DNA from: an uncultured bacterium | GTDB lineage: Bacteria > Muiribacteriota > Ozemobacteria > Ozemobacterales > Ozemobacteraceae | Assembly (NCBI GenBank): GCA_964389325.1 | Contig: CAYMEN010000003.1 | Span: forward strand, 62,502-126,501 | DNA: 64,000 nucleotides | Reading direction: 5' to 3' | Shown here: one piece after another, positions 4,897 through 61,598 of the stretch | How the letters are laid out: the number at the start of each line of letters is the position of its first letter | Numbering within the stretch: position 1 is the first letter of the stretch | Program-made: the position numbers and the translations under genes | The notes under the pieces: model-generated | Databases searched by the model: none | What the model was told of the DNA's origin: nothing | Seen by the model: the letters and a program-made list of their open reading frames with translations, nothing else

Positions 4897-8136
<3,240 letters not shown>

Positions 8137-8307
8137 TTCCTCCGGGGAAACAACACGGGCGCGGGGCCGGATATTCAGGCCTCGCGCCGCTTTTTCGCCG
8201 GCGATATCTATGTTCCGGAAAGGAAACGACATCCGCAGATGGCGCAGATGACGCAGATATAATATGAATATTTATATATAAGCACCCGGATTCAATACGG
8301 TCTTGAA

Positions 8308-8352
8308 AAACGCCTTCGCCGCGAGCCTGGAAGCACGCAGCGAAGGCGTTTT
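8308..8352. terminator. bidirectional rho-independent terminator between convergent RND pump and anti-sigma genes
   Basis: Perfect 13-bp stem AAAACGCCTTCGC ... GCGAAGGCGTTTT flanked by A/T runs on both sides. Confidence 0.55.
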
Positions 8353-8359
8353 GCACCGG

Positions 8360-9460
8360 CTAGTTGGCTCCGGGTTGGTGGTCCAGGAGGGTGGACAGCG
8401 GGTCGTCGGAAACGGCGGCCGGCGAGGCGGTTGCCGATGCCGGCTGGAGCGTCGGGGACGCCACGGTGGGCGCGGAAGCGGGCTGCGGGAATGCCGGTTG
8501 TTCGATGACCTCCGTCTGCGTCGCCGTTTCGGAGGCGACGGCGGCCGTGGCGGGATCGATCGTGCGTGGTGAGGGGAATCCCCAGGCCCGGATATCGGAT
8601 TCGGCGAGCGTTTCGAGAGAGACCAGTTCACCGCAGACTGCGCGGGTTCCGGGAGTGAGAATGACCGGCGGTTCCGAGGCGATGGCCAGGGTGAGGTTCC
8701 CTGCAAACAGATCGATACAGGTGGTGTTCGAAGCTATTCTGACGCCAAACGCCGCATTGTTGGCCTTAACCGAAGCGATTCCGGCGTTCAGGGTGCGGGC
8801 CCTGGCAGGCTGACCGGATTTGAAGTCGCACCTGGCCGCCCCGGCCTCGAGCCGGATTTGCTCGTTGTCGATCGTGAGCCTGGAGTCGGGGAGAAGGTCG
8901 ATCCGGCCGCTCGATGCGACCGAGAGGGCGAAGCGGCCGTCGATTCCGGTGGTGAAGCAGGTCGGCTCGGTGAAGAGGCCGTTCGTCAGGTTCGTCGAAG
9001 CGCTCCAGCGGCCATCCGCCAGGATCAGGCCGACAGGGTCCTCGAGTTTCCCGGCCAGCGTCGCCCGGCCCTGGACCGATGTCCGTGTGACTCCCGGCCC
9101 GTCGGAAACGGGGCGGGAAACCGAGAAAAACAGCAGCCCGGCGAGGGCGGCCGTGGCGAGAACCGACAGCCATCCGATGAACCGCCGACTGCCGCCGGCC
9201 TGTTCGGCCGTGTCGGGCTCCGCCTGGACGGGAACCGGAAGAGCCCGGACGGCGGCCATGATGCGCGGCGTGAGGTCGGGGCCTTCGCGGAGGCGCAGCC
9301 GCTTCAGATCGGCCTGGCCCCGGCGGGCTTCCTCGATCATCGCCCGACACGCGCCGCATTCGCCGAGATGGCGCTCGAAGGCGGCCAGCTCGCTGCCCTG
9401 CAGGGCACCGTCCAGATACTCGCAGCACGTTATTTCATCGAAATGGTTCATATCGTTCAT
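8360..9460 (-). CDS. anti-sigma factor (zf-HC2 type, single TM, periplasmic domain with P/A/T-rich C-terminal tail)
   Basis: N-terminal CCEYLDGAL...FERHLGECGACR zinc-finger anti-sigma motif; TM WLSVLATAALAGLLFF; located directly downstream of ECF sigma gene. Confidence 0.7.
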   Translation of the reverse strand: MNDMNHFDEITCCEYLDGALQGSELAAFERHLGECGACRAMIEEARRGQADLKRLRLREGPDLTPRIMAAVRALPVPVQAEPDTAEQAGGSRRFIGWLSVLATAALAGLLFFSVSRPVSDGPGVTRTSVQGRATLAGKLEDPVGLILADGRWSASTNLTNGLFTEPTCFTTGIDGRFALSVASSGRIDLLPDSRLTIDNEQIRLEAGAARCDFKSGQPARARTLNAGIASVKANNAAFGVRIASNTTCIDLFAGNLTLAIASEPPVILTPGTRAVCGELVSLETLAESDIRAWGFPSPRTIDPATAAVASETATQTEVIEQPAFPQPASAPTVASPTLQPASATASPAAVSDDPLSTLLDHQPGAN

Positions 9461-9513
9461 CCTGTCGTTCTTAACTTCCCCTGAAACGACCGACGGTTAC
9501 ATGAATCGAACAC

Positions 9514-10101
9514 TTATTTGCTCTCGCTCCCGAAAGCGGCGGGCAAATCCGCGGGGGCTTCCTTCTGCAGCGTCTGCCCGAGTATGCGCCGGGCACGGAA
9601 CAGCCGTATTTTCACGAGATGCTGGGGAATTTCGAGAATCTCGGATATCTGCTGGTACGACCGTTCGAAAAAGTAGAACAGCCAGACGACGAGCTTGAAA
9701 TCCTCGGGAAGCCGGGCCATCGCCGCCCCCACCGCCTCCTGACGCTCGCGCCGGAGCTGCTCGTCGAGCGGATCGCAGAAGATGGGAATCTCTGCGTCGG
9801 GAAGCGGGACGGGGGTCTTTTTCCGGAGAGCCTTGTAACAGTGGTTGGTGGCGATTTTCAGGATCCAGTTCGTGAAGGAGCGCGACTGGTCGAATCGTCC
9901 GAGGCTCTGATACGTCGCGATGAACACTTCCTGGACGACATCCTCGGCCGCCGCGGGCCGTCGCACGTGATACAGCGCCATCATGTAAATCTTGCTCTGG
10001 TATCGCTTCACGAGCTCGCCGAACGCTTCCACCCGGCCAGCGAGCACCTGTCTGACGATCTCGGCATCCTCGGGCGGATGAGCTCCGGGGTGGTCCGTCA
10101 T
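9514..10101 (-). CDS. ECF-family RNA polymerase sigma factor (sigma-70 regions 2 and 4)
   Basis: Region 2 motif VQEVFIATYQSLGRFD...FTNWILKIATN and region 4 helix-turn-helix (SYQQISEILEIP...VKIRLFRARRIL). ATG at 10101 forms an ATGA overlap with the upstream pseudopilin stop; alternative ATG at 10110. Confidence 0.85.
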   Translation of the reverse strand: MTDHPGAHPPEDAEIVRQVLAGRVEAFGELVKRYQSKIYMMALYHVRRPAAAEDVVQEVFIATYQSLGRFDQSRSFTNWILKIATNHCYKALRKKTPVPLPDAEIPIFCDPLDEQLRRERQEAVGAAMARLPEDFKLVVWLFYFFERSYQQISEILEIPQHLVKIRLFRARRILGQTLQKEAPADLPAAFGSESK

Positions 10102-10649
10102 GGTTCCCATCCGGGGATGAGACTGTTGCTGGCGTGGTTCGAGCAGTAGATGAACCGGTTCACCTCGAAGACTTCCGTTCCCTTGGGCGGCGTACCGATC
10201 TTGAGGTGAACGCGGAAGCCCATGCGGTTGTCCGGCAGGTCGACCCGGGTGAACTTCGTGTCGAGCACCATCAGCTCGCGACAGTAGACATATTCTTCAG
10301 GCGTCCCCGACGTGGGGATGTGCTTCCTGATGAGACCCCGGTTGGAGGGCGGGCGCTCGTAGATAATCGAGCTCTGGGACAGCCCGCTCCCGTCGCTTTC
10401 GAGAATCCCGATCTTGGCGGAGGGCTCTTCGGAGCCGGGTTGCATCGAGGAAAGATCGACGGCGCGCTGGACGTCGTCTTCGATCTGGGAAAGCAGGATC
10501 GCGGTCGACTGGACGTTCGTGAGGTGCGCGGCGCCCTTCGTCGAGGTTTCCATGCCCTTCGACAGCAGGCGGCTGAGCGCGTAGACGACGATCGACGCGA
10601 GCAGCACGCTGACGGCGATTTCCACGAGGGTGAAGGCGCGACGTTTCAT
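10098..10649 (-). CDS. prepilin-type N-terminal cleavage/methylation domain protein (minor pseudopilin-like)
   Basis: MKRRAFTLVEIAVSVLLASIVVYAL prepilin leader + hydrophobic helix. Confidence 0.6.
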   Translation of the reverse strand: MKRRAFTLVEIAVSVLLASIVVYALSRLLSKGMETSTKGAAHLTNVQSTAILLSQIEDDVQRAVDLSSMQPGSEEPSAKIGILESDGSGLSQSSIIYERPPSNRGLIRKHIPTSGTPEEYVYCRELMVLDTKFTRVDLPDNRMGFRVHLKIGTPPKGTEVFEVNRFIYCSNHASNSLIPGWEP

Positions 10650-10652
10650 GGT

Positions 10653-11081
10653 TCAGCGGTTCCTGTATGTCATGCAGCTCATCGAGATGCTGCGCTTGAC
10701 CTGCGCGGTTTTCCAGGCGACCTCGGCCACCAGGACCTTGTAGATGAACGGCACCGTCGCGGGAACGGACGGGGTGATGACCGAGAGCTTCCGCTCGAAC
10801 CGGTCGTCGGCTTTGAGAACGAAGGTGGAGCCGTCCGCCTGCGTCACCTCGAGAGCATTCGCGTCGCGCGTTCCCGCCGCGAGGAACGGCGCATCGAACG
10901 GCCTGGACTGGGCGTAATCGAGAAGCTCGGTCGCGTAGGTGTAGGCGAGCACCTCGTCCCGGGTCTGCTGGGTGCCTGCCGCGCCCCGGGAGAAAATGAA
11001 AAAGATGGGGGAGAGGCACGCCGCGACAACGAGAACGGCGATCATGACTTCGGTGATGGTGAAGGCGTGTTTCTTGTTCAT
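10653..11081 (-). CDS. prepilin-type N-terminal cleavage/methylation domain protein (minor pseudopilin-like)
   Basis: MNKKHAFTITEVMIAVLVVAACL; start ATGA-overlaps stop of upstream 709-aa gene. The long ORF 10653..12251 in the track is this gene fused in-frame to an antisense artefact. Confidence 0.6.
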   Translation of the reverse strand: MNKKHAFTITEVMIAVLVVAACLSPIFFIFSRGAAGTQQTRDEVLAYTYATELLDYAQSRPFDAPFLAAGTRDANALEVTQADGSTFVLKADDRFERKLSVITPSVPATVPFIYKVLVAEVAWKTAQVKRSISMSCMTYRNR

Positions 11082-13207
11082 TTCAGCTGCAGGGGCGTGG
11101 GGTTGAGCGTGAACGAGAGGAGGTCCTGTTCGGAGGTCTCGTCGGCGGTCTGCCCGGGAAGGGCGGCGAGGGGAAGGGCGTATTCGAGCTCGGCGCCCTG
11201 GGAGGCACTCGAGATGTCGAACCGTTTCATGGCGACGGCCCCCTTGATCTGCGGCCGGCCGTTGTCGGTCACGGTGACGCGCCCCTTCGGCGCGGTCAGG
11301 GCGGCCTGGACGGGGCCGTTGATGTCGAGGGTGATGTCGCCGTCGAGCGTGACGAGTTGGAGAACCTTGAAAGCGGAACCGACGGTGGCGTTGATCTTGT
11401 TCGAGATGACGATGTTGCCCTTTTCGAGCACGATGCCGCCGTTGCTCACCACGTCGAGATTCTGCGTGATAAGCATGTCCGTTGCCCCGGGCACGTACAC
11501 CCAGCCGTTGAGATCGAGCTTGTTGCCCTTGAGCAGGCCGCGGTCGCGGAGATTGTTCCAGATGTCCTGCGGGGCATTCCCGGCCGGAAGCGTCCAGCTG
11601 GTGCGCTTTCCCGGGACATGCATCGCGCTGATGAAGGGCGTGATGGATTTCAGGCTGTTCGCGCCGGTGAGGCTGTCGAAGGGCGCCGGAATCGCGTGCA
11701 TCTTTTCCACCGGCGGAAGCGGATCGGAATTCATGAGCGTGAGGAGCGGGCTCGTCTGGAGGCTGGGGAGCGGGAACGCCAGGTTGTTGTTGGTGACCAT
11801 GATGGCGATGGAAAGATTGTACGGGGTGTATGCGAGGTTGCTGGCGAAATCCTGGTTGAATTTCTTGAGCGATTCCCCCGAAGAGGGGTTGAAGTAGGTC
11901 ATGCGGAGGCTTGGGTCGATGAGAGTCGTGAACGTGGAGATATTGTCGTTCTCCGGCATCGGCATCGGCGACAGATACTCCTGCCAGTATGTCAGGTTGC
12001 TCGCATCGCCGGGGACGCAGTTCAGGAAATCGGGGGTGAACCGTTTCCGGAGATCCTTGATCGCTTTCGCGGTGATGTAGGAGCGATACACCTCGCCGAG
12101 AACGAGGGTGGGAGACTTTTTCGAATCGGTGCCGTACAGCCGGAAGATCGAGTTGAAGCGGGCGAGTGAAGCAAGTTTCGAGTTGGCGATGAACCCCCAC
12201 CATTCGCGTGCGCCCGACGAGGTCGTGTCGAAGGTGGTTCCCTGGTCCCATCCGAGGAGGGCGATTTCACCGGCCGGATCGAGCCATTTGAGCGTGTACA
12301 GCCCATCGCCCTTGCCGCTCTTGAACAGGTGGAAACCTTCGGCGTATTTTCCCGGGCTGGGCCAGCCGCGTGCGAGGTTGAGATACATCCTGCCGCCGCC
12401 GAGATAGATGAGGCCGCGCTTTCCCTGGACGAGGCTGTCGAAGGTGAGGCTGCTGAGCGAAAGCTGGTCGTCGCCGTTCCAGAGCACCCAGGGCGTGACC
12501 TGATACCCGGTCTGGAGATTGCCGGTGACGTCCGTTGCGGCGAGGTTGAACCGCCACGGGGAACGGGTCGGTGAGCCGTCCAGCGCATCCTCGACATACA
12601 GGGTGAACTTCGAGAGCACCGGGATGATGGCGGCCGTGACCTTGACGCGGAGGGCGTAGTGGTAGTCTTCCGGATACTCCGGACCGTTCGTTTTCTTGTA
12701 CCTGATCGTCACATACAGGTGGATGATGCCGGATTTCTCTCGCGGAAACTTCGAGGAAATCGCGGAAAAGTCGCCCGCCCGGCATTCATACCGGATCTCG
12801 TAATTGAAGGTTCCGTGAGCCGCCAGGGGCTTGATCAGCTCTTTGACGACGTTCGAGAGATCCGGATCGCCCGAGTCGAACGCGATGGGAGGGTTGGCGG
12901 TGCGCGAAAGGTCGCCCATGCCGCTCACAGGCTTGCGGAGGTAGGTGACGAGGGGGTGATCGGGCCTGAGAAGGATATCGTGCTGGATTTTCTGCGCCGC
13001 GAGGTGAGCGAGGGAATTGGCCAGCACGCCCGTGATGCGCTGCTGGGCCTGCTTGTGCCCCGCGCGATTCTGTCTCACCATATACTGGATGAAATATCCG
13101 CCGATGAGCAGAAGCGCGAACATGACGCCTCCCGCCAGGATCAGAACCGAACCGTTCCGGTTCGATGCCTGCCTTGGGGTGGGTGCGGGCCGGGGCGGAA
13201 GCGTCAT
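11078..13207 (-). CDS. large membrane-anchored hypothetical protein (709 aa), N-terminal TM without prepilin cleavage motif, beta-strand-rich C-terminal region; possible GspK/minor-pilin-complex-like component
   Basis: TM VLILAGGVMFALLLIGGYFIQYM near N-terminus; G/C third-position bias; translationally coupled to downstream pseudopilins. Confidence 0.5.
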   Translation of the reverse strand: MTLPPRPAPTPRQASNRNGSVLILAGGVMFALLLIGGYFIQYMVRQNRAGHKQAQQRITGVLANSLAHLAAQKIQHDILLRPDHPLVTYLRKPVSGMGDLSRTANPPIAFDSGDPDLSNVVKELIKPLAAHGTFNYEIRYECRAGDFSAISSKFPREKSGIIHLYVTIRYKKTNGPEYPEDYHYALRVKVTAAIIPVLSKFTLYVEDALDGSPTRSPWRFNLAATDVTGNLQTGYQVTPWVLWNGDDQLSLSSLTFDSLVQGKRGLIYLGGGRMYLNLARGWPSPGKYAEGFHLFKSGKGDGLYTLKWLDPAGEIALLGWDQGTTFDTTSSGAREWWGFIANSKLASLARFNSIFRLYGTDSKKSPTLVLGEVYRSYITAKAIKDLRKRFTPDFLNCVPGDASNLTYWQEYLSPMPMPENDNISTFTTLIDPSLRMTYFNPSSGESLKKFNQDFASNLAYTPYNLSIAIMVTNNNLAFPLPSLQTSPLLTLMNSDPLPPVEKMHAIPAPFDSLTGANSLKSITPFISAMHVPGKRTSWTLPAGNAPQDIWNNLRDRGLLKGNKLDLNGWVYVPGATDMLITQNLDVVSNGGIVLEKGNIVISNKINATVGSAFKVLQLVTLDGDITLDINGPVQAALTAPKGRVTVTDNGRPQIKGAVAMKRFDISSASQGAELEYALPLAALPGQTADETSEQDLLSFTLNPTPLQLK

Positions 13208-31855: not shown

Positions 31856-33539
31856 GATGAACTCGATTCTCATGGTGGTGGTCGCCGTTATCGTTATTCT
31901 GCTGGTCTTTGTCATGTTTTCCCTCGACGACCAGGAAGAGTATACGGTCGACGAGAACCAGGCCCGGCCCGAATCCGAGGGAACCGGCGATCTGAACGCT
32001 GCCGCGGCGGAAGCCGAGCAGTCAGGGACGGCGATGAACGAACCACCGGGCACCTCCCGGGAGGCGGGCTTCGACATCCCCCCACAGGCCGTTTCGGCCG
32101 CCGCACGTCAGCGCCGGCTCAAGGCCGAACAGGCCGGGGACGCGCTTCCCCTGGCGGATATCGAGAGCGTCCAGGTCGGCTCGGAAGAGGACCTGAGATA
32201 CCGCCTGCTCCTCGACGACCAGGTGCCGCCGCCCACCGAGGTCGCGGTCAAGCAGGGCGTGGCGGTCATCGTCCAGATCCGTCTCCCGGAAGAACTCCAG
32301 GCAGACCAGGAGATCTGGGCCCAGACGCTGGCGAGCGTCGAGGCGATCCTGTCTCCCGAGAAGGCGCCGTTCCCCTACAGCGTCTACCTGACCAGCCAGT
32401 TCGACCATCTGTGGCTGTTTGGCATCGACGAGGAACGTGACGACCCGGTGTTCGAAGCGATCGTCTGCGCGTTCGACGCCGTTCGGCGGTTCAAGAAGGC
32501 CCTCGAGTCCCAGCCCGCCCTCCAGACCGCCCGGGCCCGCCTCTCCGTCGGCATTTCCAGCGGCAAAATCGCCCGTATCAAGCGCGGCCCGCTCGGCCCC
32601 GTTTCCCATGCGGGAAAAGCGGTCTACACGGCCGAGGCGCTTTCCGAGGTCGCCGGCGACTTCATGATCTACGTCGACGACGACGTCCACCGCCTCGCCA
32701 TCCCGCTGTTCGACTTCCGCGAATGGAAGCCGATCAAGCTGCGGCCGGCGCTTCCGCCGATCCCGTTCTACGAAGTCATGGGATGGAACAAGAAGGAAGA
32801 GATGTTCGCCTTCGCCTCGCACAAGGAAACCTATGCGCGCCGTGCCGTTGCCGTGGCGTTCCGGTATCTCGAGTTCGACGATATGGGGCCGCTGCTCAAC
32901 CTGATGAACGATGCCGACGAGAAGGTCGTTCTCGAGACCCTCTCGACCCTCGCCGAGATCGGCGACCCCCGCGGCATGGGCATGCTCAAGAAGATCCTTC
33001 CCGAGGCCCGCGACCCGATGGTGCGGAGCGGCATTCTCAAAGCATTCGGCGGGATCGGCAGCTCCGAGGTGATCCCCCTGCTGAAGGCGTCGATGAAGGA
33101 TGCCCACTGGCTGGTGCGCTACCAGGCGGTGCTCTCGATGGCCCGCCTCGGCGGCAACGACGCGCTCAAGCACATCGAGGAGCTGGCGAGTGACGACGAC
33201 GGCGCCGTCCGCGCCGCGGTCCACCTGGTGAAATACCAGGAGACGCAGAACAAGGACGACCTCGAGGCCCTCAATGAGCTGCTGGGAGATCTGTCGGGCC
33301 GGGCGCGCAAGGCCGCCGCCGAAGCCCTGATCAAGATCGGCACGCGCGAAGCCCTCTCGATGGTCGCGAAATCCTTCCATCAGCAGGAACCGGGCCTGTG
33401 CAGGCACATCCTTCGGCTCCTCATGGAATGCCGCTCACAGAGCCTTTACCAGACGTTCCTCACGCTCTTCCAGCACTCGGGCGAGAAACTGCGCCCCGAG
33501 ATCGTCGCGGCCGTGCGTCGCGCGCGGCTCGTGGGCTGA
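31856..33539 (+). CDS. membrane-anchored protein with degenerate class III nucleotidyl cyclase-homology-like domain and C-terminal HEAT (PBS lyase-type) repeats
   Basis: N-terminal TM ILMVVVAVIVILLVFVMF; RLSVGISSGKIARIKRGPLGPVSHAGKAVYTAEALSEVAGDFMIYV resembles cyclase-homology-domain motifs; repeated DPRG/DPMVR...AL..L HEAT units; 4 nt upstream of sigma-54 response regulator. Confidence 0.45.
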
Positions 33540-33542
33540 TCC

Positions 33543-34937
33543 ATGGCCATCGAGATTCTCGTCGTCGACGATGAGGACATGATCCGGTGGACCCTCCGGG
33601 AGTCCCTGGAAGGCGAGGGCTACAAGATCTTCGATTTCCCGAACGGCCGGGACTTCATCCGCTACTTCTCTGAAAAGGGCGGAGATATTATACTGCTCGA
33701 TGTGCGACTGCCGGATGCGAACGGCCTCGACCTCCTGCTGGAAATCAAGCAGCTCGATCCGAACGTTCCCGTCGTCGTGATGACGGCGTTTGGCGACGTC
33801 GAGACGGCCGTGACCGCGATGAAACGCTGGGCATACGATTATCTCTCCAAACCCTACAACCTGGCGGAAGTGAATCTTCTCATCAAGAAGATCGTCGAGA
33901 CGTCGCTGCTGAAAAATCAGCTGCAATATATCCGCGAGCGCGTCGAAAACAGCTTCGCGCAGATTCTCGGCGACAACCTGAAGATCAGGCAGCTGCGCGA
34001 TCATATCGCCATGGCGGCGCAGAGCGACCGGACGACGGTCCTGATCCGGGGTGAGTCGGGGACCGGCAAGGAGCTGGTCGCCCGCCAGATCCACCAGCAG
34101 AGCACCCGGGCCGGCCAGCCGTTCATCGATGTGAACGCCGCTGCCGTCACCGGCACCCTGCTCGAGTCCGAGCTCTTCGGCCATGAGAAGGGCGCGTTCA
34201 CCGACGCCCAGCGGCAGAAAAAAGGCTTCTTCGAACTGGCCGACAAGGGAACGCTGTTCCTCGACGAGATCGGCGATCTCGACCCGAACCTGCAGGCCAA
34301 GCTGCTGCGCGTCCTTCAGGAAAAGCGCTTTCGGCGCGTCGGCGGCTCGACCGATATCACGGTCGACGTGCGCATCATCGCCGCCACCAACGCCGATCTC
34401 GAACGGGCCATGGAAGACGGCCGCCTGCGCCGCGACCTGTTCTACCGGCTGAACGTGTTCACCGTCTTCCTGCCGCCGCTCCGGGAGCGTCAGGACGACA
34501 TCCTGCTGCTTGCCCGCGCCTTTCTCGACCAGTTCCGCCGCGAGTTCTCGAAGGATATCTCCGGCTTTTCCCCGGAAGCCTGCGAGATTCTGCAGAAATA
34601 CCAGTTCCCGGGCAACGTGCGAGAGCTGAAAAACATCATCGAGCGGGCAACCCTTCTCGAAACGACGAACAAGATCAGGCCGGTCAGCCTTCCTGAGGAA
34701 ATGCGAAGCTGGCGCCGGCCCGCCGCCGCTCAGACGGCCGCTATGCCGGCCGACCAGCCATGGAAAACCCCGGGGTTCAATCTCAAGGAATACGTAGACT
34801 CCGTCGAGAAGCGGATCGTGCAGGACGTCATCAAGGAGTGTGACGGCAAAAAGGGAGAGGCAGCCAAGCACCTCGGCCTGAGCAGGTTCGCCCTGCGCCA
34901 TCAGTTGAAAAAGCACGGCATCGATGACGAGGGGTGA
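33543..34937 (+). CDS. sigma-54-dependent Fis-family response regulator (REC - AAA+ sigma-54 activator - HTH), NtrC-like; no cognate histidine kinase gene adjacent
   Basis: REC domain with DD...D phospho-acceptor (LLDVRLPD), Walker A GESGTGKE, GAFTDA, ESELFGHEKGAFTGA-like GAFTGA motif, C-terminal HTH. Confidence 0.9.
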   Translation: MAIEILVVDDEDMIRWTLRESLEGEGYKIFDFPNGRDFIRYFSEKGGDIILLDVRLPDANGLDLLLEIKQLDPNVPVVVMTAFGDVETAVTAMKRWAYDYLSKPYNLAEVNLLIKKIVETSLLKNQLQYIRERVENSFAQILGDNLKIRQLRDHIAMAAQSDRTTVLIRGESGTGKELVARQIHQQSTRAGQPFIDVNAAAVTGTLLESELFGHEKGAFTDAQRQKKGFFELADKGTLFLDEIGDLDPNLQAKLLRVLQEKRFRRVGGSTDITVDVRIIAATNADLERAMEDGRLRRDLFYRLNVFTVFLPPLRERQDDILLLARAFLDQFRREFSKDISGFSPEACEILQKYQFPGNVRELKNIIERATLLETTNKIRPVSLPEEMRSWRRPAAAQTAAMPADQPWKTPGFNLKEYVDSVEKRIVQDVIKECDGKKGEAAKHLGLSRFALRHQLKKHGIDDEG

Positions 34938-35028
34938 AAAATGTGTGAAAATGACACCTGAGAGGAGGGATGTGTAAAAATTGCACGCATCCGGCGTGAA
35001 AAATATTGTACATCACGTATTTCGGACA

Positions 35029-35044
35029 TGGCACGAATCCTGCT
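35029..35044 (+). promoter_or_regulatory. sigma-54 (-24/-12) promoter TGGCAC-N5-CTGC upstream of ptsN; candidate enhancer inverted repeat CACGC-N5-GCGTG at 34984-34998
   Basis: TGGCACgaatcCTGCT matches TGGCAC-N5-TTGC consensus with one mismatch, about 45 nt upstream of ptsN ATG. Confidence 0.6.
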
Positions 35045-35085
35045 TGATCTATGGCAGCCTTTGAGCTTACGCAGGAGAAAAACAG

Positions 35086-35535
35086 ATGATATCGGAGCTG
35101 CTCCAGGAAAACTTCATCAATCTCGATCTCGACGCCGGTTCCAAGAACGATGCGATCGCGAGCCTCTCGACGATGCTCTCGTCATCGGGCAAGGTCGTTG
35201 ATTGTACTTCCTTCGTGCGGGCCGTTCTCGACCGCGAGAAGCTCGGAAGCACCGCGATCGGTTCCGGGATCGCCATTCCTCATGCCCGTGCCAACACGGT
35301 CAATGAAGTGTCCATCGCTTTTGCCCGGTGTGGAAAGGGCGTCGACTTCAACTCCGTCGACGGCGACCCCGTCCATCTGATCTTCCTGCTTGCCGCCCCC
35401 ATCGAATCGGGCAGCCTGTATCTCAAGCTGCTGGCCCGCATCTCCCGCCTCCTTCGCTACCAGGATCTCATCGAAGAGCTGAAAAAGGCTCAGACGAAAG
35501 AAGACGTTATCCGCATCATCGCGTCGAAGGAATGA
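35086..35535 (+). CDS. ptsN: PTS IIA-like nitrogen regulatory protein PtsN (EIIA-Ntr)
   Basis: PTS_EIIA_2 fold sequence with active-site His in GIAIPHAR. Confidence 0.85.
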   Translation: MISELLQENFINLDLDAGSKNDAIASLSTMLSSSGKVVDCTSFVRAVLDREKLGSTAIGSGIAIPHARANTVNEVSIAFARCGKGVDFNSVDGDPVHLIFLLAAPIESGSLYLKLLARISRLLRYQDLIEELKKAQTKEDVIRIIASKE

Positions 35536-35561
35536 TCCGGCGAGGCCGGAGGAGTACGGGT

Positions 35562-36029
35562 ATGACGCTTGTTCATGCATACGAAGCCGGCGAAAGCAGT
35601 ACGGTCAGCATGTCCCCCGAGGGACTCTCGGTCCATATGCGCATCCCGGCCGAGCGCATGTACATGGCGAATGCGGTACTGACGCTTCGCGAGATCTGCG
35701 ACCACCTCTGCCTTTCCGAAGATCGGACCAACCGGGTCGTGCTGGTGCTCGAAGAGGCGCTGATGAACTCGATCGAGCATGCCTACAATGGTGACGGTGG
35801 CCTCATCGACCTGCAGTTTTCGATCGAAGGCCCGGAGTTCGTGATTGTCGTCGAAGATTTCGGCAACGGCATGGTCCATGACATCGACATCGATTCGCTC
35901 GAGGCTTCCGATCTGCTGTTCGAGCGTGGGCGCGGGCTGTGCATCATGAAAGGCATCTCCGACAGGGCTGTCGTCCAGTCGAGTTCGCGCGGCACGCGGG
36001 CCACGATGCTTTTCCAGCTCCAGAACTGA
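35562..36029 (+). CDS. GHKL-type anti-sigma-factor-like serine kinase (RsbW/SpoIIAB family, HATPase_c)
   Basis: N-box EEALMNSIEHA, G1 VEDFGNG, G2 GRGLCIMK; about 155 aa; GGAGG RBS. Confidence 0.65.
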   Translation: MTLVHAYEAGESSTVSMSPEGLSVHMRIPAERMYMANAVLTLREICDHLCLSEDRTNRVVLVLEEALMNSIEHAYNGDGGLIDLQFSIEGPEFVIVVEDFGNGMVHDIDIDSLEASDLLFERGRGLCIMKGISDRAVVQSSSRGTRATMLFQLQN

Positions 36030-36037
36030 GAGGAAGA

Positions 36038-36508
36038 ATGACCACAGACAACATCAGGGAACGAACCTTCGTTCTTATCAAGCCTGACGGCATCCAGCGC
36101 GGCAAAGCGGGAGAGATTCTCTCCCGCTTTGAGTCTAAAGGGCTGAAAATCGTCGGCATGAAAATGGTCCGCATCACCGGCGAACAGGCCGAGCGCCAGT
36201 ACGCCTGCCACAAGGGAAAAGCGTTCTACGAGTCGCTCGTCGCTTTCATGCTTTCCGGGCCGTGCCTGGCCCTGGTGCTCGAAGGCCGCAACGCGATCGA
36301 TATCGTTCGCAAGCTGATGGGCGCGACCAACCCGATCGCGGCCGAACCCGGCACCATCCGCGGCGACATGGCCCTCGACACCAAGCATAACCTCGTCCAC
36401 GGCTCCGACTCGCAGGCCAGCGTCGACCTCGAGACGCCGATCTATTTCGCGCCGAACGAGCTTTTCGAATACGACCTCGCGACCAGGGACTGGTTGTATT
36501 ACACCTGA
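36038..36508 (+). CDS. ndk: nucleoside diphosphate kinase
   Basis: ERTFVLIKPDG..., active-site NLVHGSDS (catalytic His), GAAGAATG RBS. Confidence 0.95.
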   Translation: MTTDNIRERTFVLIKPDGIQRGKAGEILSRFESKGLKIVGMKMVRITGEQAERQYACHKGKAFYESLVAFMLSGPCLALVLEGRNAIDIVRKLMGATNPIAAEPGTIRGDMALDTKHNLVHGSDSQASVDLETPIYFAPNELFEYDLATRDWLYYT

Positions 36509-36699
36509 ATCCGACCTGACCATCTGATCCACGACGCGGGAGGGGCTGACCGGCCTCTCCCGCTTTCTCTCCTCCGGGCGCTTCACGAAACGCCCGAACG
36601 ATACGATTGTTTCCTCTGTGTCTGGTATGTTGAAAAAACGTATATTCACCGCGGAGGCGCCGAGGCGCTGAGAAGAATAGAATCGTTCATCTTTTTGAC

Positions 36700-36772
36700 T
36701 CGTTTCTTTCTCTGCGTCTCTGCGACTCTGCGGTTCAATCTTCGTATCTCCGTGACTCTGTGGTGCGTTGTT
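36700..36772. repeat. intergenic repeat element, copy A (shares an exact 17-mer at 36704-36720 and an exact 13-mer at 36759-36771 with copy B at 60099-60175, in reverse-complement orientation)
   Basis: TTCTTTCTCTGCGTCTC at 36704-36720 is the reverse complement of 60117-60133; CTGTGGTGCGTTG at 36759-36771 is the reverse complement of 60099-60111. Confidence 0.55.
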
Positions 36773-36861
36773 TTGTCAACATTCCGGGCACGAGCGGAAA
36801 CTCATGCGCTCGCGCTGGTTGGGCTCTTGCATTGATGGCGGGGATCAGGCATCATGCGGAC

Positions 36862-38466
36862 ATGCGCCTTTCCCGCCTCTTGCTCGGATTGCTCCTCGTC
36901 GTTCTGTGCGCCGCTCTTGGCGCATGGGGCGCGCTCTCGTCGGTCGCGGGAAACGAGTATGTCGTGCGCTGGGGGGCAATGATGGCCGCCCAGAGCCTCG
37001 ATGCCGACATGCAGCTCGGAAGGGTGACCGGAACCGTGCTGGAAGCCCTGCGCATCGACGGCGTCCAGGGCATGGTGCGCCGCTCGCGGACGGGATTCGC
37101 GGCGGGGCCGGTCGAAATCTCGTTCAACCTGCGTGAAGCCGCTCACCGGGGCCTCGTCATCGGAACGCTGAACTGTCCCTGGCTGAAATTCTGGGGCGGC
37201 GTGCCGGTGCCGCCCTGGCTGGGCGGTTTGCCGGAGCTGCCTCCGCCGACGTGCCAGGCCGACCTGAAACTTCCGGTCGGCATCGACCGCATCCGCCTCG
37301 ACCGCATCGACTGGATGCCGACGGCATCCGGGCCGGTCGAGGTCACGGTCGCCTCGTTCGCGATCGATGCGGCATCACGGACGAACGGTCTCCAGCCCGT
37401 CTCGTTCTCGCTGTCGGTTCGGTTCAAAGGCGCCGAGTTCGCCGCCGCGGCTTTCGAGGGACACCTGGCCTCGACCAGGGCGTCCCTGTCTGGAAAAATA
37501 GCAGGAAATATATTTAGCTTTCCCGTCGACGCCGGCCTGAAGGTTTCGGTGAAGCGGGACGGCGTCTTCGCCGAGGGGACACTGGCCGAAACCCGGATCG
37601 ACCTGACGGTGCTGTCGAAATGGCTCAGTCCCCTCTGGCGGGACACCGTGCCGCTGTTCGTGAACGGAGGGATCACCGGGGGAGGAACCTGGGTGGCCCA
37701 GCCGAAGCTCGGCTTCGCGGGCCGGTTCCAGGGGCGGTTCGATCGCGTCGTGTTCGTGCTGACCGGGTTCAACCTGCCGCTCGCCGAACTGGACGCCCCT
37801 TGGAAATGCTTCGACGGCAAGCTGCGCGTCGAGCATGGAGACAGCCGTTTCATCGGCTTTCCAGCCTCCTTCAGCGGGACCGTCGGGCTCGCCGCCGGTC
37901 TGAAGCCTGACTGGAGCATCGAAGCCCGGGTCGCCGATCTTCCCCTGGCCGATCTCGTCGCAACCCTGCCGTGGGCGGTGCGATACGGGTACGGTGTTCC
38001 CGATCTGGCCGGCCTGGCAAGCATGACCGCCCGGTTCGACGGAACCGCGCCCGGCATCCTCGTCAACGCGACGGCCCTGGTGGCCCGGCAAACCGGATCG
38101 GCCGCGACATCGAGCATTTCGATCCGCTACCGTCACGCGGCCGGGCAGCCGGACCGCTGGGACCTCGAATCCTGCTGGACGGCTGAAACCGACATGCCGA
38201 AAGGTTTTGCCGGACTTCCCGTGCGCGTGGCCCCTTCGGGAGAACCGTTGCGGCCCCCGTTCGAATTCCGTTTCGAGGGATTCGGGACGTATCTCGACAA
38301 GCTCGATACGCGGCTGGGCATTTTCTGGAAAGACGGCGGTGCCTGGCAGGCAACGGGGCTCCTCGAAGGCCACGCCTGGGACGGCCCCGTCGTCGGTCAG
38401 GACGGCCAGCCGGTGGCGATCCCTCAGGATCTGGGCCTGATCGATTTTCTGCTGCCGGGAACGTAA
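36862..38466 (+). CDS. hypothetical secreted/membrane-anchored protein (about 535 aa); start uncertain (alternatives 36760, 36835)
   Basis: N-terminal signal-like MRLSRLLLGLLLVVLCAALGAWGA; coding GC3 bias; no recognisable catalytic motif. Confidence 0.4.
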   Translation: MRLSRLLLGLLLVVLCAALGAWGALSSVAGNEYVVRWGAMMAAQSLDADMQLGRVTGTVLEALRIDGVQGMVRRSRTGFAAGPVEISFNLREAAHRGLVIGTLNCPWLKFWGGVPVPPWLGGLPELPPPTCQADLKLPVGIDRIRLDRIDWMPTASGPVEVTVASFAIDAASRTNGLQPVSFSLSVRFKGAEFAAAAFEGHLASTRASLSGKIAGNIFSFPVDAGLKVSVKRDGVFAEGTLAETRIDLTVLSKWLSPLWRDTVPLFVNGGITGGGTWVAQPKLGFAGRFQGRFDRVVFVLTGFNLPLAELDAPWKCFDGKLRVEHGDSRFIGFPASFSGTVGLAAGLKPDWSIEARVADLPLADLVATLPWAVRYGYGVPDLAGLASMTARFDGTAPGILVNATALVARQTGSAATSSISIRYRHAAGQPDRWDLESCWTAETDMPKGFAGLPVRVAPSGEPLRPPFEFRFEGFGTYLDKLDTRLGIFWKDGGAWQATGLLEGHAWDGPVVGQDGQPVAIPQDLGLIDFLLPGT

Positions 38467-42593: not shown

Positions 42594-42659
42594 CCCCGAA
42601 CCCGGTCATGATATTCGCCCGGATTTCAACGGCCGCAGGTCACCGAAGGAGTTACCGCC

Positions 42660-43271
42660 ATGAGTATCGATGTCGCAACCTTCACCAAGCAGCTTCGCGA
42701 GGACGGTATCGAAGCCGCCCGCCGCGAGGCCGAAAAGATCCTGGCCGATGCGAAGGCGAAAGCCGAACACGAGAAAGAGCAGGCGAAGGCCGCGGCCCGC
42801 CGCATGGTCCAGGATGGGGAGGCCGAGATCGCCCGGCACCGGCAGAAGGTCGAAGCCGAGCTCAGGCTCGCCGCCCGCGACCTGGTTCTCGACGTCAAGA
42901 AACGCCTGGAAAACCTGACCCGCGGCCTTCTCCAGCCGGTCATCGCCGAGAAGCTGTCGGCGGCCGACGTCGTCGAATCCTCCCTCCGGGAACTCCTGAA
43001 AACCCAGAAAACCGGCCGCGAATGGGAAGCGGCGCTCGGCCCCGTCGTCGGCGCGAAGCTGACCCAGGCCGCGCTGAGCGACCTGTTCAAAACCGCGGAC
43101 GGCCGCGTGAAGCTTGGCGAGGCGCTCAAGTCGGCCGGCTTCACCCTGCGCGACACCGCTTCCGGCGAAGTCGTCGAACTGACCGAAGCCTCGGTCGCCG
43201 ATGCCTTCGGCCGCCTGGTCGCGCCCCAGCTCCGCGCCCTCCTGGACAAGTCCGAAAACGCCGGAGCCTGA
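42660..43271 (+). CDS. atpE: V-type ATP synthase subunit E
   Basis: About 200-aa all-alpha, A/E/K-rich coiled-coil protein at head of V-ATPase operon; GAAGGAG RBS. Confidence 0.75.
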   Translation: MSIDVATFTKQLREDGIEAARREAEKILADAKAKAEHEKEQAKAAARRMVQDGEAEIARHRQKVEAELRLAARDLVLDVKKRLENLTRGLLQPVIAEKLSAADVVESSLRELLKTQKTGREWEAALGPVVGAKLTQAALSDLFKTADGRVKLGEALKSAGFTLRDTASGEVVELTEASVADAFGRLVAPQLRALLDKSENAGA

Positions 43272-43280
43272 GTCGCAACC

Positions 43281-43985
43281 GTGAGCGCGCGACTCTACTA
43301 CCTCCTTTCCGCCCTGCCGCCCCTGCCGGGGTTCGGCGAGCAGCTCCCGTGCGGCCTCGGCGACGTGCTCGCGGCCATGCGCGCGGAAGAGGACCCGACG
43401 CTCGACACCCTCGCGGACTGTTTCTCCGTCGAGCCGGCCCTGCGCGCGATGCAGAAAAGCCGCCTGGTCGGACATCTGCCCGAGCCGCCGGCCGACCTGA
43501 TGGAGCTTCTGCCCGACTGCATCCGGGAACGGGTCGCCGTCTGGCCGTCCCGCGAGGAGGAAGTCGCCTGGCACGAGAGCGTCTGCTTCGCCTGGTTCGA
43601 GTTCATGCACCGGACGGGCCACGCCATCGGTTCCAGACTGCTCCAGCGCTGGAGCGCCTGGGAAATGACCCTCGCCGTGTATCTGGCGAACGCTCGTGAT
43701 ACCGCGGAATCCGCCCCGGCGAAGGACCGCCCTGTTTCGCCTGAAGCCCCGGCCTTCGATTACGATGGGCTGGTGGCCGAATGGCACAACACCGCCGACC
43801 CGATGATCGGCGAGCACAAGCTCGACGAGGCCCGGTGCGCCTTCCTCGCCTCGGAATCGACCCGATACTCGTTCGAGATCGACGAACTCGTCTTCTACCT
43901 GCTGAAACTCAGACTGTTGTCCCGGTATGCCACTCTCGACCGGGGCACGGCGCTCAAGATACTCGAGGAGGTCACAGCCCTGTGA
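43281..43985 (+). CDS. V-ATPase operon-associated hypothetical protein (DUF2764-like position, as in Chlamydiae/Spirochaete V-ATPase operons)
   Basis: Located between subunit E and subunit A genes, exactly where the conserved hypothetical gene sits in Chlamydia and Borrelia operons; too short for subunit C. Confidence 0.45.
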   Translation: MSARLYYLLSALPPLPGFGEQLPCGLGDVLAAMRAEEDPTLDTLADCFSVEPALRAMQKSRLVGHLPEPPADLMELLPDCIRERVAVWPSREEEVAWHESVCFAWFEFMHRTGHAIGSRLLQRWSAWEMTLAVYLANARDTAESAPAKDRPVSPEAPAFDYDGLVAEWHNTADPMIGEHKLDEARCAFLASESTRYSFEIDELVFYLLKLRLLSRYATLDRGTALKILEEVTAL

Positions 43986-50657: not shown

Positions 50658-53513
50658 TCAGGCGTGTTTGCGGAAGTGCCGGAGCCAGGCGAGGAATTTT
50701 TCGGTCTGGGAGCCGATCAGTTCGGTCAGGAGAATCGCCTCGCGGTCCTGGTAGTTCTTGAGGGCGAACTCCGACAGCAGGTTGAGGCAGCCGGGGTCGC
50801 TGAACAGTTCGAGCAGGCGGTCGAAATGATGCCTGAACTCCTCGGCCTTTTTCTGCCGCTCCTCGGTCGAAAGGCTGGGACGACGCAGTTTGAGCCGCTC
50901 GAGGAGGGACAGCGGCTGGTTGAACAGCTGGGAGAGGCAGGTCGGGCCCCGGGGCTGGCGCGCCCAGATATACAGGATGTCGAGCATCGCGGTGAGCCGC
51001 ATGTCGCGATCGTGCGAACTCAGGCGCGGAAGCAGTTCGCTGAGGTCGCGCTTGCGGATGACGACGCGCTGTCTGTATTTCCCGAAGCCTTCGATGAAGC
51101 CGCCGACGACGTCCGACCAGAGTTTCGCCTGGACGATGCTCGGGATGCCGATCAGGTTCCCGATCGGCGCGAAGGCCGTCGCGAACGGCCAGGCGAGCAC
51201 CGTGCGGAAGAAGTTCGCCCGGATGACGCGTCGGTCGAAGTTGCGCAGCCTGTTGTGGGTGCTGATGTAGATCCCGTTCGCCATGCACAGGAAGAAAAAC
51301 TTGGCGGCCTCGAACAGGAAGCCCGCCTTTTCGAGCGGCCAGCTGTCGTCGAACGCGATCTTCACGAAGCCGAGGATCGGGACACTGAAACCGGTCCAGA
51401 ATAAAGACTGTGATATATTATCAAAGTTGACGTTGCGCAGGCTCCAGTTCCGGATGAGGATCCCGGAGCTGGCGAGCAGGTCGACCAGCATGTTCCGGGT
51501 GCCGGTGATCAGGAACCAGATCACGGCGAACATCACGCCGGCCAGCTGGCCGAACTGGTAGTTCATGAACGAGAACGCCACGATGAACCCGATGGCGATG
51601 CGCCAGAGGCTCTTGAGGCCGGGGTTCACATACGCCCAGAACTCGCCGGGCGGAACGAGGTCGAGCGCTTCCTCGTCTCCGACCAGGTTCCGGAAGGGCT
51701 TGCCGATTTTGCCCATGCAGACGACGTCCGACCCGCTGCCGATCGGCGCATCGGGGCTGTCGTCCTTCTTCCCGTCGTGGATGACGAGGTCGGCGATCGG
51801 CCGGGGGACCTTGTAGTGTGACTCGAGAAACTCGGGGCGCACCGACTCGGGAATGTCGCTGACCTTGATGAAACCCATTCCCGGGATCGTCGGGTCGCGG
51901 CCGGTCGAATCGCTGCCGCAGACCGGGATCAGCGGCCGGCGCGCGGTGAGTTCCCGGGCCTTTTGCACCTGCTGCCGGACGCCGCCCGTGATCCCGTGCT
52001 GTTCGAGGAAGTTCACGACGTCGTCCTCGGTGCCGTTGTTGAGCAGGTAGACGAACTTGTTGAAGATGATCAGGTCGTTCGGGTTGCGCGCCGAGCTGTC
52101 GCGCAGGTTCAGCGTCTCGATGTGCGAGATGCGGGCGATGTGCTTGAGCAGGTGCTGCATCGAGTCCTTGAGCCCGATCTCGAGGGGGTGGATCATGACG
52201 ATCCGGCCGCCCTGGCCGATCAGGGTGTCGAGTATCGGCTCCTCCTCGGCGAACTCGCTGTCGTAATCGACGACGTCCCGGCCCTCCATGTAGGAGGCCC
52301 GCAGGCTTTCCGGCGTCATCGTCTCGTACTGCTCGCGCACGGCCTCATACTGCGACGAGATGTTCTTGAACTCCCACTCGCTGTAGATGCCCCGCGTGAG
52401 GCGGTCTTCGGCGGCGAGCACCTGCGCCTTCAGCTGGAGGACGCGGCGCTGGAGGATGTCGCGGAACTTCTGGAACAGCAGTTCGCCGATATGGACTCTC
52501 GAAATCTGCCCGCACGCAACGATCCGGTCGAGCTCCTCGAGGGTGAGCGGCGGGAACCAGCAGGGGCTGTCGGGTTCCCAGCCGGAGTTGAGCCGTGGCC
52601 GCTGGAGCGTGTTGAACCGCTCGACGGCGGCGACCATCGTCTTGTGGCGGCTCGCCGCGTTCGTGCGGAGGCCGCTCAAAAACGGGGTGAAAATCATCCG
52701 GCGCTCGTCGAAAAACGCGAAAAACGCTTTGCTGTCGGCGGTTTCGGGCGGCACGTACATGTAGTGACGCCGGGCGCCGCTGTGGCCGACGCTGAACTCG
52801 ATACCGATGTTCACCTTGATGCCGAGAATGTTGCCGGCGGTGATCGCCTCATGGATCATCCGGCGCTCGTCGAGGTTCGAATACACGATGGTGAGCCGGG
52901 AAATGCCCTTCACGAAAGCGTCCAGCAGCACCTGCGTCGGGGTCTTGCGGCCTTCCGACAGGAAGTCGTGAACGTGGTCGTCCCAGCCCATGTTCAGCTC
53001 GCGGAGCGGCTTTTCCTCTTCGGGGACTTCGACCAGGTGGAGTTTGTTCAGGAACCGGCGGACGACCGCTTCCTGCCCGAACGAGACCAGGCCGAAGTCG
53101 GCCATGGCTTCCATCTGGCGCCGGCGGTTGCTGCGCGATTTGACGACTTCCTTCATCAGGTCGATCTGGATGCGCGCCGTGTTCAGCGGCATGTTGATCG
53201 TCTTCGCGTGGAGGGACTGGTCGACCATCATCGAGAGGGCGGCCAGCCGCTCCTCGGCGGAGTTCGGAGAAAGGTCACGCGCGATCTTGATGTAGGCGCC
53301 GGCGATGCTGAGACGCCGCTTGCCGAAATCGCGAACGAAGCCGCCGGGGTGGGAGAGGTGCCGGACGTTCAGCCGGGTCGGGGGTTCGTCGAGTTTGTGG
53401 TTGACGGCATCGACCAGCGACTCGATTTCGTTGTTGAAGCTCAGCCACTCGATCAGGCTGGACAGCAGACCGACAGCCGTGTCGTGGGATGTTTGCAGCA
53501 GCCAGCGGAGCAT
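50658..53513 (-). CDS. large hypothetical membrane protein (951 aa): about 600-aa soluble N-terminal region, then a multi-TM block, then a C-terminal soluble region
   Basis: Continuous ORF with coding GC3 bias; hydrophobic helices between about residue 600 and 800 (e.g. WRIAIGFIVAFSFMNYQFGQLAGVMFAVIWFLITG); no motif recognised. Confidence 0.5.
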   Translation of the reverse strand: MLRWLLQTSHDTAVGLLSSLIEWLSFNNEIESLVDAVNHKLDEPPTRLNVRHLSHPGGFVRDFGKRRLSIAGAYIKIARDLSPNSAEERLAALSMMVDQSLHAKTINMPLNTARIQIDLMKEVVKSRSNRRRQMEAMADFGLVSFGQEAVVRRFLNKLHLVEVPEEEKPLRELNMGWDDHVHDFLSEGRKTPTQVLLDAFVKGISRLTIVYSNLDERRMIHEAITAGNILGIKVNIGIEFSVGHSGARRHYMYVPPETADSKAFFAFFDERRMIFTPFLSGLRTNAASRHKTMVAAVERFNTLQRPRLNSGWEPDSPCWFPPLTLEELDRIVACGQISRVHIGELLFQKFRDILQRRVLQLKAQVLAAEDRLTRGIYSEWEFKNISSQYEAVREQYETMTPESLRASYMEGRDVVDYDSEFAEEEPILDTLIGQGGRIVMIHPLEIGLKDSMQHLLKHIARISHIETLNLRDSSARNPNDLIIFNKFVYLLNNGTEDDVVNFLEQHGITGGVRQQVQKARELTARRPLIPVCGSDSTGRDPTIPGMGFIKVSDIPESVRPEFLESHYKVPRPIADLVIHDGKKDDSPDAPIGSGSDVVCMGKIGKPFRNLVGDEEALDLVPPGEFWAYVNPGLKSLWRIAIGFIVAFSFMNYQFGQLAGVMFAVIWFLITGTRNMLVDLLASSGILIRNWSLRNVNFDNISQSLFWTGFSVPILGFVKIAFDDSWPLEKAGFLFEAAKFFFLCMANGIYISTHNRLRNFDRRVIRANFFRTVLAWPFATAFAPIGNLIGIPSIVQAKLWSDVVGGFIEGFGKYRQRVVIRKRDLSELLPRLSSHDRDMRLTAMLDILYIWARQPRGPTCLSQLFNQPLSLLERLKLRRPSLSTEERQKKAEEFRHHFDRLLELFSDPGCLNLLSEFALKNYQDREAILLTELIGSQTEKFLAWLRHFRKHA

Positions 53514-61001: not shown

Positions 61002-61022
61002 TCGGCGAGGAGACTGTCACCC

Positions 61023-61589: not shown

Positions 61590-61598
61590 CGGCATCCG

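Follow-up and report, generated by a model that had tools for sequence, protein, structure and literature searches.

We analysed a 64,000-nucleotide (64-kb) stretch of DNA from an uncultured bacterium of the Ozemobacteraceae (assembly GCA_964389325.1, contig CAYMEN010000003.1, positions 62,502 to 126,501), hereafter called the window, and focused on a cassette of forward-strand genes that includes a stand-alone EIIA protein of the phosphotransferase system (PTS) and a GHKL protein encoded next to it. The first of these genes encodes a membrane-anchored HEAT protein of 560 aa (31857–33539; Pfam HEAT_2 and AlphaFold2 (AF2)/Foldseek), whose start we set at the ATG at 31857, matching the MNSILM N-termini of its orthologs. 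It is followed by the gene for an orphan NtrC-family sigma-54 enhancer-binding protein (33543–34937) with REC, Sigma54_activat, AAA lid and HTH_8 domains. After an intergenic region of 148 nt comes the EIIA gene (35086–35535; PTS_EIIA_2, fructose/mannitol/Ntr type, Pfam 1.8e-41), and 26 nt further on the gene for the RsbW/SpoIIAB-type GHKL protein of 155 aa (35562–36029; HATPase_c_2, 2.6e-20). A gap of only 8 nt separates the latter from ndk, encoding nucleoside diphosphate kinase (NDK; 36038–36508; Pfam NDK, 2e-52), which scored above its curated NCBIfam cut-off (NF001908, 188.5 > 155) and whose catalytic-His motif NLVHGSD can be read in the DNA. As judged from the sequence, the operon is closed after ndk by a terminator-like hairpin (36536–36563, forward strand) with a 12-bp stem containing 9 GC pairs. 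The positions given for the activator, EIIA, GHKL and ndk genes in a preliminary description of this DNA, including the end of ndk at 36508, were all confirmed by Pfam and NCBIfam.

The nearest protein relatives were found in metagenome-assembled genomes (MAGs) of Candidatus Ozemobacteraceae or Riflebacteria, which belong to the phylum called Candidatus Rifleibacteriota at NCBI. We compared the cassette across 11 Rifleibacteriota loci (one genome per GTDB species), 28 metagenome loci and seven targeted loci, two of which duplicate GTDB loci, giving a total of about 45 (loci are denoted by L and a number). The closest contigs, JAGOCE010000375 (L004) and Ga0208197_1000012 (L038), are 96–97% identical to the window. 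Searches by tblastn with the window proteins revealed one gene order in all GTDB loci with long enough contigs, namely DUF3048, era, HEAT, activator, EIIA, GHKL, ndk and a protein of ~550 aa, beyond which FapA and Big_5 are encoded on the opposite strand; the metagenome loci showed the same core order. EIIA is the most conserved protein of the cassette (76–99% identity to the window across loci), followed by the activator (64–97%), NDK (56–98%), the GHKL protein (43–97%) and the HEAT protein (39–96%). Literature searches on Riflebacteria/Ozemobacter, sigma-54, and EIIA-Ntr with anti-sigma/RsbW returned no paper on this locus.

The region between the activator and EIIA genes contains a predicted sigma-54 promoter, TGGCACgaatcCTGC (TGGCAC-gaatc-CTGC, with the -24 GG and the -12 GC), at 35029–35043 on the forward strand and 57 nt from the EIIA ATG. 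It has one mismatch to the consensus TGGCAC-N5-TTGC, a C for T at -14. Because a relaxed promoter pattern gave three matches in the window compared with 0.66 expected, a match in a single window proves little. Across the phylum, however, TGG[CT]A[CT]-N5-[ACT]TGC was found 49–78 nt before the ATG in 28 of 29 distinct orthologous EIIA upstream regions; in these 28 the GG and GC are invariant and the sequence of the spacer varies. As a negative control, an hpf-linked EIIA paralog, described below, has no such promoter upstream. In L067, where the activator lies elsewhere, both the promoter and the upstream palindromes described next are retained. Thus, the near-consensus -24/-12 promoter that the preliminary description placed before EIIA is real by the measure of conservation, and its proposed role in driving EIIA, the RsbW-like gene and ndk is backed by conservation and by the operon layout.

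Two conserved putative activator sites lie upstream of the promoter on the forward strand: a distal one, TGTGTGAAAATGACAC, of the TGTG-N9-CACA type (34942–34957), and a proximal one, TGTGTAAAAATTGCACG (34971–34987), 29 bp from it. When upstream regions were aligned by anchoring on the -24/-12 element, palindromes of the form (T/G)GTG-N9-CAC(A/G/T), typically TGTGnAAAAAnnnCACA, appeared at fixed offsets in nearly all regions. Counted from TGGCA, the distal palindrome lies at -85 to -99 in most orthologous loci and the proximal one at -57 to -71, with offsets of ~-58/-87 in the clade of the window and ~-68/-97 in much of the sister clade. Within the 64 kb, the palindrome pattern occurs only at these two sites, plus one match with one mismatch at 11696. 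From their position, dyad symmetry and co-conservation we infer that the neighbouring activator binds both palindromes. This link is drawn because the HTH segment of the activator, LGL[ST]RFALRHQ, is near-invariant among orthologs, because the hpf-linked EIIA paralog lacks the promoter, and because L067 keeps the sites. Considering these elements together, the activator, the two palindromes, the sigma-54 promoter and the EIIA-GHKL-(ndk) operon very probably constitute a transcriptional unit.

The inverted repeat CACGC-N5-GCGTG noted in the preliminary description is present at 34984–34998, where it shares sequence with the 3' half of the proximal palindrome, but it is lost in the 97%-identical relative L004, which reads CACTC-GCCCG-GTGGG; we therefore rejected it as the activator site. 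Another conserved motif, TGTAC (35007–35011, forward strand), lies 22 nt upstream of the -24 element. It is found at -20 to -22 relative to this element in most loci whose GHKL protein belongs to the kinase clade, and upstream of the proximal palindrome, at -66 to -80, in much of the pseudokinase clade (both clades are described below). TGTAC may be a site for a bending protein or a second regulator. Separately from the cassette, we observed a perfect sigma-54 consensus, TGGCACGCCCGTTGC, at 1756–1770 on the reverse strand, ~96 nt upstream of a thioredoxin gene (1331–1660, minus strand; PF00085, 3.1e-33). This element lies in a divergent intergenic region beside an OEP/HlyD/AcrB efflux operon and has no TGTG-N9-CACA sites nearby.

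The activator was recognised by PF00158 (Sigma54_activat, 7.9e-69) and HTH_8 (2.2e-7) and remained below every NCBIfam equivalog cut-off (best, AtoC, 476.7 < 714). Its REC domain keeps D9, D10, D53, T81 and K103, and since these canonical residues are all present the activator should need a phosphodonor. No HisKA or other histidine-kinase protein was found among the ~55 open reading frames (ORFs) of the window, as expected for the orphan regulator it had been taken for, nor among the neighbours of the related loci. Its ATG lies 4 nt beyond the stop of the HEAT-protein gene, in agreement with the preliminary description. The HEAT protein consists of an N-terminal transmembrane (TM) helix, a low-complexity linker, a middle domain and PBS-type HEAT repeats, and full-length homologs were found in Rifleibacteriota only. 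The middle domain (~aa 105–350) is predicted to adopt a degenerate class III cyclase fold. An AF2 model of aa 105–352, built on 47 homologs, reached a pLDDT of 91.9 and matched the catalytic domains of adenylyl/guanylyl cyclases in Foldseek (E 2.5e-11, TMt 0.75–0.79), including RhGC, Rv1625c, CyaB and CyaC. The cyclase homology proposed earlier therefore stands at the level of the fold, but not at that of sequence families: Pfam found no cyclase (PF00211) in this domain even at E<=10, and when a profile of the full HEAT-protein family was run against the PDB, the matches were HEAT/alphaRep proteins only. At the end of strand 1, our reading of the motif places an invariant Q36 and R38 (V-Q-[IL]-R-F-P-E-E) where cyclases carry the first metal-binding Asp, and we read the middle domain as a putative pseudo-cyclase. 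The HEAT gene is 5' of the activator gene wherever the contig reaches, usually with a gap of a few nt, and this constant adjacency fits a role of the HEAT protein as partner of the activator. In an ndk-less lineage (L037, 9170–12450), two large HAMP-guanylate-cyclase proteins with bona fide PF00211 are encoded ~2.3 kb downstream of the EIIA-pseudokinase pair, with a small ORF on the reverse strand and a SpoU methylase gene in between; these cyclases may have a bearing on the pseudo-cyclase domain of the HEAT protein.

EIIA proteins of the phylum fell into two clades, g1 and g2. The g1 clade, to which the window protein belongs, comprises proteins of 149 aa that are 70–95% identical to it among the matches listed, and the g2 clade proteins of 151 aa that are 45–55% identical to it. 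The g2 gene is located directly after hpf and before secA, with hprK, yvcK and whiA nearby (L030, L032). One MAG, GCA_012517355.1, carries both copies (g1 in L011 and g2 in L032). The histidine of the GIAIPH motif is kept in both clades; in the window protein it is His66, which we take to align with the GIAIPH histidine of Escherichia coli PtsN. The window EIIA passes the NCBIfam fruA-type EIIA domain model (117.1 > 103.5) and falls below the PtsN cut-off (TIGR01419, 90.3 < 138.7), and the g2 paralog likewise passes the former and stays below the PtsN equivalog cut-off. Differences between the two clades are limited to subtle hydrophobic swaps, and their comparison revealed no g1-specific Ser/Thr that could be a kinase target. 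The 64-kb window contains no rpoN or hpf gene, and no gene for EIIB/C, EI or HPr. The preliminary description had regarded this EIIA as a ptsN outside its usual cluster. We rejected a relocation of ptsN out of the rpoN cluster, as the hpf-linked paralog is present in the same MAG. By sequence comparison, the window EIIA is rather a second paralog, that is, an extra, dedicated copy, with the canonical hpf-ptsN-like pair elsewhere in the genome. Several PtsN paralogs per genome are on record (PMC9239096).

The family profile of the GHKL protein matched Bacillus subtilis RsbW (6m36, E 1.7e-20) and SpoIIAB (1e-13) in the PDB. Its AF2 model (pLDDT 83) matched SpoIIAB in Foldseek (E 3.7e-9), with TM-scores to SpoIIAB/RsbW of 0.8–0.94 (TMt up to 0.94 for RsbW), although it remains below the NCBIfam equivalog cut-offs for both (RsbW 45.7 < 145; SpoIIAB 41 < 135). 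The preliminary assignment as RsbW/SpoIIAB-like is thus sustained by profile and fold, and a histidine-kinase-like fragment unrelated to RsbW is not what we found. In the clade of the window, the N (E65, N69), G1 (D99-G101-G103) and G2 (G123-R-G125) boxes are intact and invariant, and with these ATP-binding motifs kept, serine-kinase activity is possible in this clade. Many metagenome loci, as well as a complete 5.2-Mb genome (L034), have at this position a gene whose product of 133–146 aa is not recognised by Pfam and is joined to the GHKL family by hhalign with 99.5% probability (E 2.9e-23). In these pseudokinases the Asn of the N box is missing, as are the entire G1 box and the G2 box, and Pfam gives only sub-threshold HATPase_c_2 matches, at profile positions 1–75. 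A motif census placed 24 of the 41 loci scored in the complete class and found none of the motifs in the other 17; L048 was counted as complete, as its sequence carries the N-box motif for which the regular expression had returned "mixed". The pseudokinases are well conserved among themselves and keep an N-terminal LSxHMRIPAxxxYxxNAxLTLxxICxH segment, which argues that they are under selection as non-catalytic proteins. As 17 of the 41 loci have lost the ATP-binding motifs, any mechanism conserved across the phylum has to rely on binding rather than on serine phosphorylation.

The fold and the intact boxes raise the possibility of a classical partner switch, in which the GHKL protein would be an RsbW-type anti-sigma kinase that phosphorylates an unlinked STAS anti-anti-sigma protein and holds a sigma-70-family factor, with EIIA and NDK merely co-expressed under sigma-54 control. 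RsbW and SpoIIAB are indeed its best PDB relatives, the clade of the window keeps its N, G1 and G2 boxes, and unlinked partner-switching components exist elsewhere, for example in Chlamydia (PMC11619594, PMC4552016). In contrast, we found no STAS, PP2C, sigma-factor or histidine-kinase gene beside the cassette in the window or in the neighbourhoods of the ~45 loci. In the window itself, the only sigma/anti-sigma pair, an extracytoplasmic function (ECF) sigma factor (Sigma70_r2/r4_2) with an adjacent zf-HC2 anti-sigma factor (8360–10110, reverse strand), lies 25 kb from the cassette with no sign of a link. Moreover, the 17 kinase-dead proteins are conserved and encoded next to EIIA, and EIIA is still joined to the GHKL gene after rearrangements that dropped ndk and the activator. 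On the basis of the cassette neighbourhoods covered, we consider a classical switch unlikely.

Outside the phylum, the nearest HATPase_c_2 relatives of the GHKL protein (23–35% identity) have an adjacent STAS gene in nine of 15 loci, an arrangement seen in no Rifleibacteriota locus, and none of these 15 loci has an EIIA gene as neighbour. The pairing of EIIA with an RsbW-like protein, described earlier as unusual, was found in this phylum only. Among the outgroup loci, the order accA-kinase-STAS-mlaE recurs in Omnitrophota and Planctomycetia (L015, L019, L022, L024, L025 and L028) and suggests a partner-switch module tied to Mla lipid transport. A STAS-kinase order was found in Verrucomicrobiota. 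In three Latescibacterota loci, the kinase domain is preceded by REC: L018 (2353–3165) encodes a REC-HATPase_c_2 fusion of ~271 aa (Response_reg, 6.9e-33; HATPase_c_2, 2.1e-26), and L017 and L026 are probably also such fusions, judging by ORF length together with tblastn REC matches (L026) or analogy to L018.

Wherever a Rifleibacteriota locus has both, EIIA g1 directly precedes the gene for the GHKL or pseudo-GHKL protein. In L036, the EIIA-pseudokinase pair faces the HEAT-activator pair in convergent orientation at a distance of 8 kb, and in L067 the EIIA-GHKL pair occurs without activator or ndk nearby. The ndk gene is present in most loci and missing from the cassette in L036, L037/L064, L066 and L067. 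These rearrangements bear on the simplest alternative, that there is no functional coupling and that three unrelated small genes (a spare EIIA, a stray GHKL gene and housekeeping ndk) happen to share a sigma-54 promoter and are held together only by their place in a slowly rearranging housekeeping block (phoH-ybeY-corC-era). The cassette does lie inside such a conserved region, with ffh-rpsP-KH-rimM-trmD-rplS-lepB and then phoH, 7TMR-HD, ybeY, CNNM/CorC, DUF502, DUF3048 and era upstream of it; in addition, ndk has been lost from it in some lineages, and the GHKL gene has degenerated to a pseudokinase in part of the phylum and is missing from L066. However, the EIIA-GHKL pair persists outside the block in L036 and L067, in the latter with its promoter and palindromes, the pseudokinases appear to be under selection, and no protein of the locus is more conserved than EIIA g1. 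In our view, an absence of coupling is very improbable. From the invariant adjacency, and from the fact that EIIA occupies the slot of STAS in the relatives, EIIA g1 and the GHKL protein appear, on balance, to be functionally paired.

In the deep-branching lineage of L036 we also observed an rpoN gene 8 kb upstream of EIIA g1 (1–663 and 8001–8450), in the order rpoN, Poly_export, Wzy_C, SBP, ABC, ABC, EIIA, pseudokinase. Upstream of EIIA, this locus shows no -24/-12 element. In the same lineage (L035), DUF6754, MutL-like and Wzz genes come after the HEAT-activator pair.

A further alternative concerns the target of the GHKL protein. This protein could inhibit the neighbouring sigma-54 activator, with the phosphorylation state of EIIA tuning the inhibition and thereby producing a nutrient-gated negative feedback. 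Precedents for such a loop are the action of the GHKL-domain protein NifL on NifA and that of the PspF-dependent product PspA on PspF. In agreement with this idea, the GHKL gene itself is under the predicted promoter of the activator and near the activator gene in nearly all loci, and its ATP-binding motifs are dispensable, as expected of a binding protein. Nevertheless, the GHKL protein has no similarity to NifL beyond the common GHKL fold, L036 and L067 have the EIIA-GHKL pair apart from the activator, and nothing singles out the activator as the target, which makes this loop quite unlikely.

The interpretation we favour, and regard as somewhat probable, is that the locus represents a sigma-54 cassette specific to Rifleibacteriota, whose EIIA and GHKL proteins would work as a binding pair, EIIA taking the place of the STAS antagonist. 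Some observations weigh against it. The L066 lineage has EIIA without a GHKL gene, EIIA and the GHKL protein differ in conservation (76–99% and 43–97%, respectively), and adjacency is the one link between the two. With regard to sigma-54, rpoN itself was seen in one related contig only (L036), and the contact loop of the activator reads GAFTDA, not GAFTGA, in the window and 12 orthologs (13 of 13), with the F and T kept.

In the mechanism that we propose for this binding pair, the activator would probably be translated together with the upstream membrane pseudo-cyclase/HEAT protein, through which it would also be controlled, with a phosphodonor for Asp53 as a possible further input. It would bind the two TGTG-N9-CACA sites ~29 bp apart and activate the sigma-54 promoter, giving a transcript for the second EIIA paralog, the RsbW/SpoIIAB-type GHKL protein and, in most lineages, NDK. 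If His66 is phosphorylatable, EIIA could report the state of the PTS phosphorelay and modulate the GHKL protein by phosphorylation-dependent binding. The GHKL protein would in turn sequester or release a target encoded elsewhere, which may be a sigma factor, the activator itself or some other component. EIIA-Ntr is known to bind kinases such as KdpD in a manner that depends on its phosphorylation state (PMC9239096). The PTS-to-anti-sigma link suggested in the preliminary description is plausible as a hypothesis. More specifically, EIIA may have replaced the STAS antagonist in a partner switch, so that binding of EIIA, with its histidine phosphorylated or not, to the RsbW-fold protein (an active kinase in one clade and a purely binding pseudokinase in the other) would free or capture a sigma factor or the sigma-54 activator; this version is tentative and we consider it rather doubtful.

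Comparison with known systems shows what is shared and what differs. As in the RsbV-RsbW-SigB and SpoIIAA-SpoIIAB-SigF switches of Bacillus, the cassette encodes a small HATPase_c_2 protein with N, G1 and G2 boxes and the SpoIIAB/RsbW fold, and the gene for a small regulatory phosphoprotein is located directly 5' in the same operon. In contrast to these switches, the upstream protein is an EIIA (phosphorylated on His by the PTS) in place of a STAS protein (a substrate that the kinase modifies on Ser), ndk is found downstream instead of a sigma factor, there is no PP2C phosphatase nearby, transcription appears to be sigma-54-dependent, and part of the phylum has a kinase-dead version. With PTS-Ntr (PtsP-PtsO-PtsN; rpoN-hpf-ptsN in Proteobacteria), the cassette shares a stand-alone EIIA with the GIAIPH histidine, no EIIB/C partner nearby, and a connection to sigma-54. 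Here, however, sigma-54 is predicted to transcribe the EIIA gene instead of merely being encoded in its neighbourhood, the copy next to hpf is another paralog, the window EIIA does not reach the PtsN equivalog score, and the partner gene of the cassette is of the GHKL Ser-kinase type, not a histidine kinase.

The activator resembles those of the NtrC/AtoC type in its REC, AAA+ and HTH_8 domains, in the canonical REC residues, and in having two dyad sites about three helical turns apart, ~50–100 bp upstream of a -24/-12 promoter. It differs from them in being preceded by a TM/pseudo-cyclase/HEAT protein with no adjacent histidine kinase, in the GAFTDA loop, and in scoring below the NCBIfam equivalog cut-offs. 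Finally, SiaB-SiaC of Pseudomonas aeruginosa and UsfX of Mycobacterium tuberculosis were among the fold matches of the GHKL protein (6kko, 8jzt and 8ih8). They illustrate that proteins of the RsbW fold can have non-classical partners or outputs; SiaC is not a classical STAS protein, and UsfX is not known to have kinase activity. However, these matches were weaker than those to SpoIIAB/RsbW, and neither system involves EIIA or sigma-54.

Downstream of the cassette, a conserved gene (36862–38466, forward strand) encodes a protein of ~535 aa with a hydrophobic N-terminus, for which searches of Pfam, NCBIfam and PDB sequences found no match. Its homologs (26–86% identical) come after ndk in most loci. 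A protein of this type abuts the pseudokinase gene in L036 (EIIA, 133 aa, 542 aa) and EIIA in L066 (EIIA, then ~544–545 aa), and given this abutment in two deep-branching loci it may be part of the same system. In the 350-nt gap between the ndk terminator and this gene, we observed repeated CTCTGCG/ACTCTG(C/T)GG-like words at 36690–36775 (ctctgcgtctctgcgactctgcgg...gactctgtgg). An Rfam scan of the 64-kb window gave no match. Elsewhere in the window, four large ORFs with good codon bias have no Pfam family; all are on the reverse strand, at 50658–53513 (951 aa), 11078–13207 (709 aa), 42606–43817 (403 aa) and 61017–62231 (404 aa).

In summary, the locus is composed of known families in a new arrangement that is conserved across a candidate phylum. 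To our knowledge, no regulatory biology has been described for Rifleibacteriota, an uncultured phylum, and the promoter together with the two TGTG-N9-CACA sites provides a regulon signature for it. If EIIA and the GHKL protein do not interact, the locus is a conserved sigma-54 operon of ordinary parts. If EIIA has indeed replaced the STAS antagonist, the PTS phosphorelay would be wired directly into the availability of a sigma factor or activator, with sigma-54-dependent feedback. The catalogue of regulatory EIIA modes is still growing, and partner-switching kinases are usually thought of together with STAS antagonists. In this context, the cassette, which keeps its pairing even where the kinase motifs have decayed, is a candidate, open to test, both for a new output of the PTS and for a partner switch that works by binding only and without a STAS protein.

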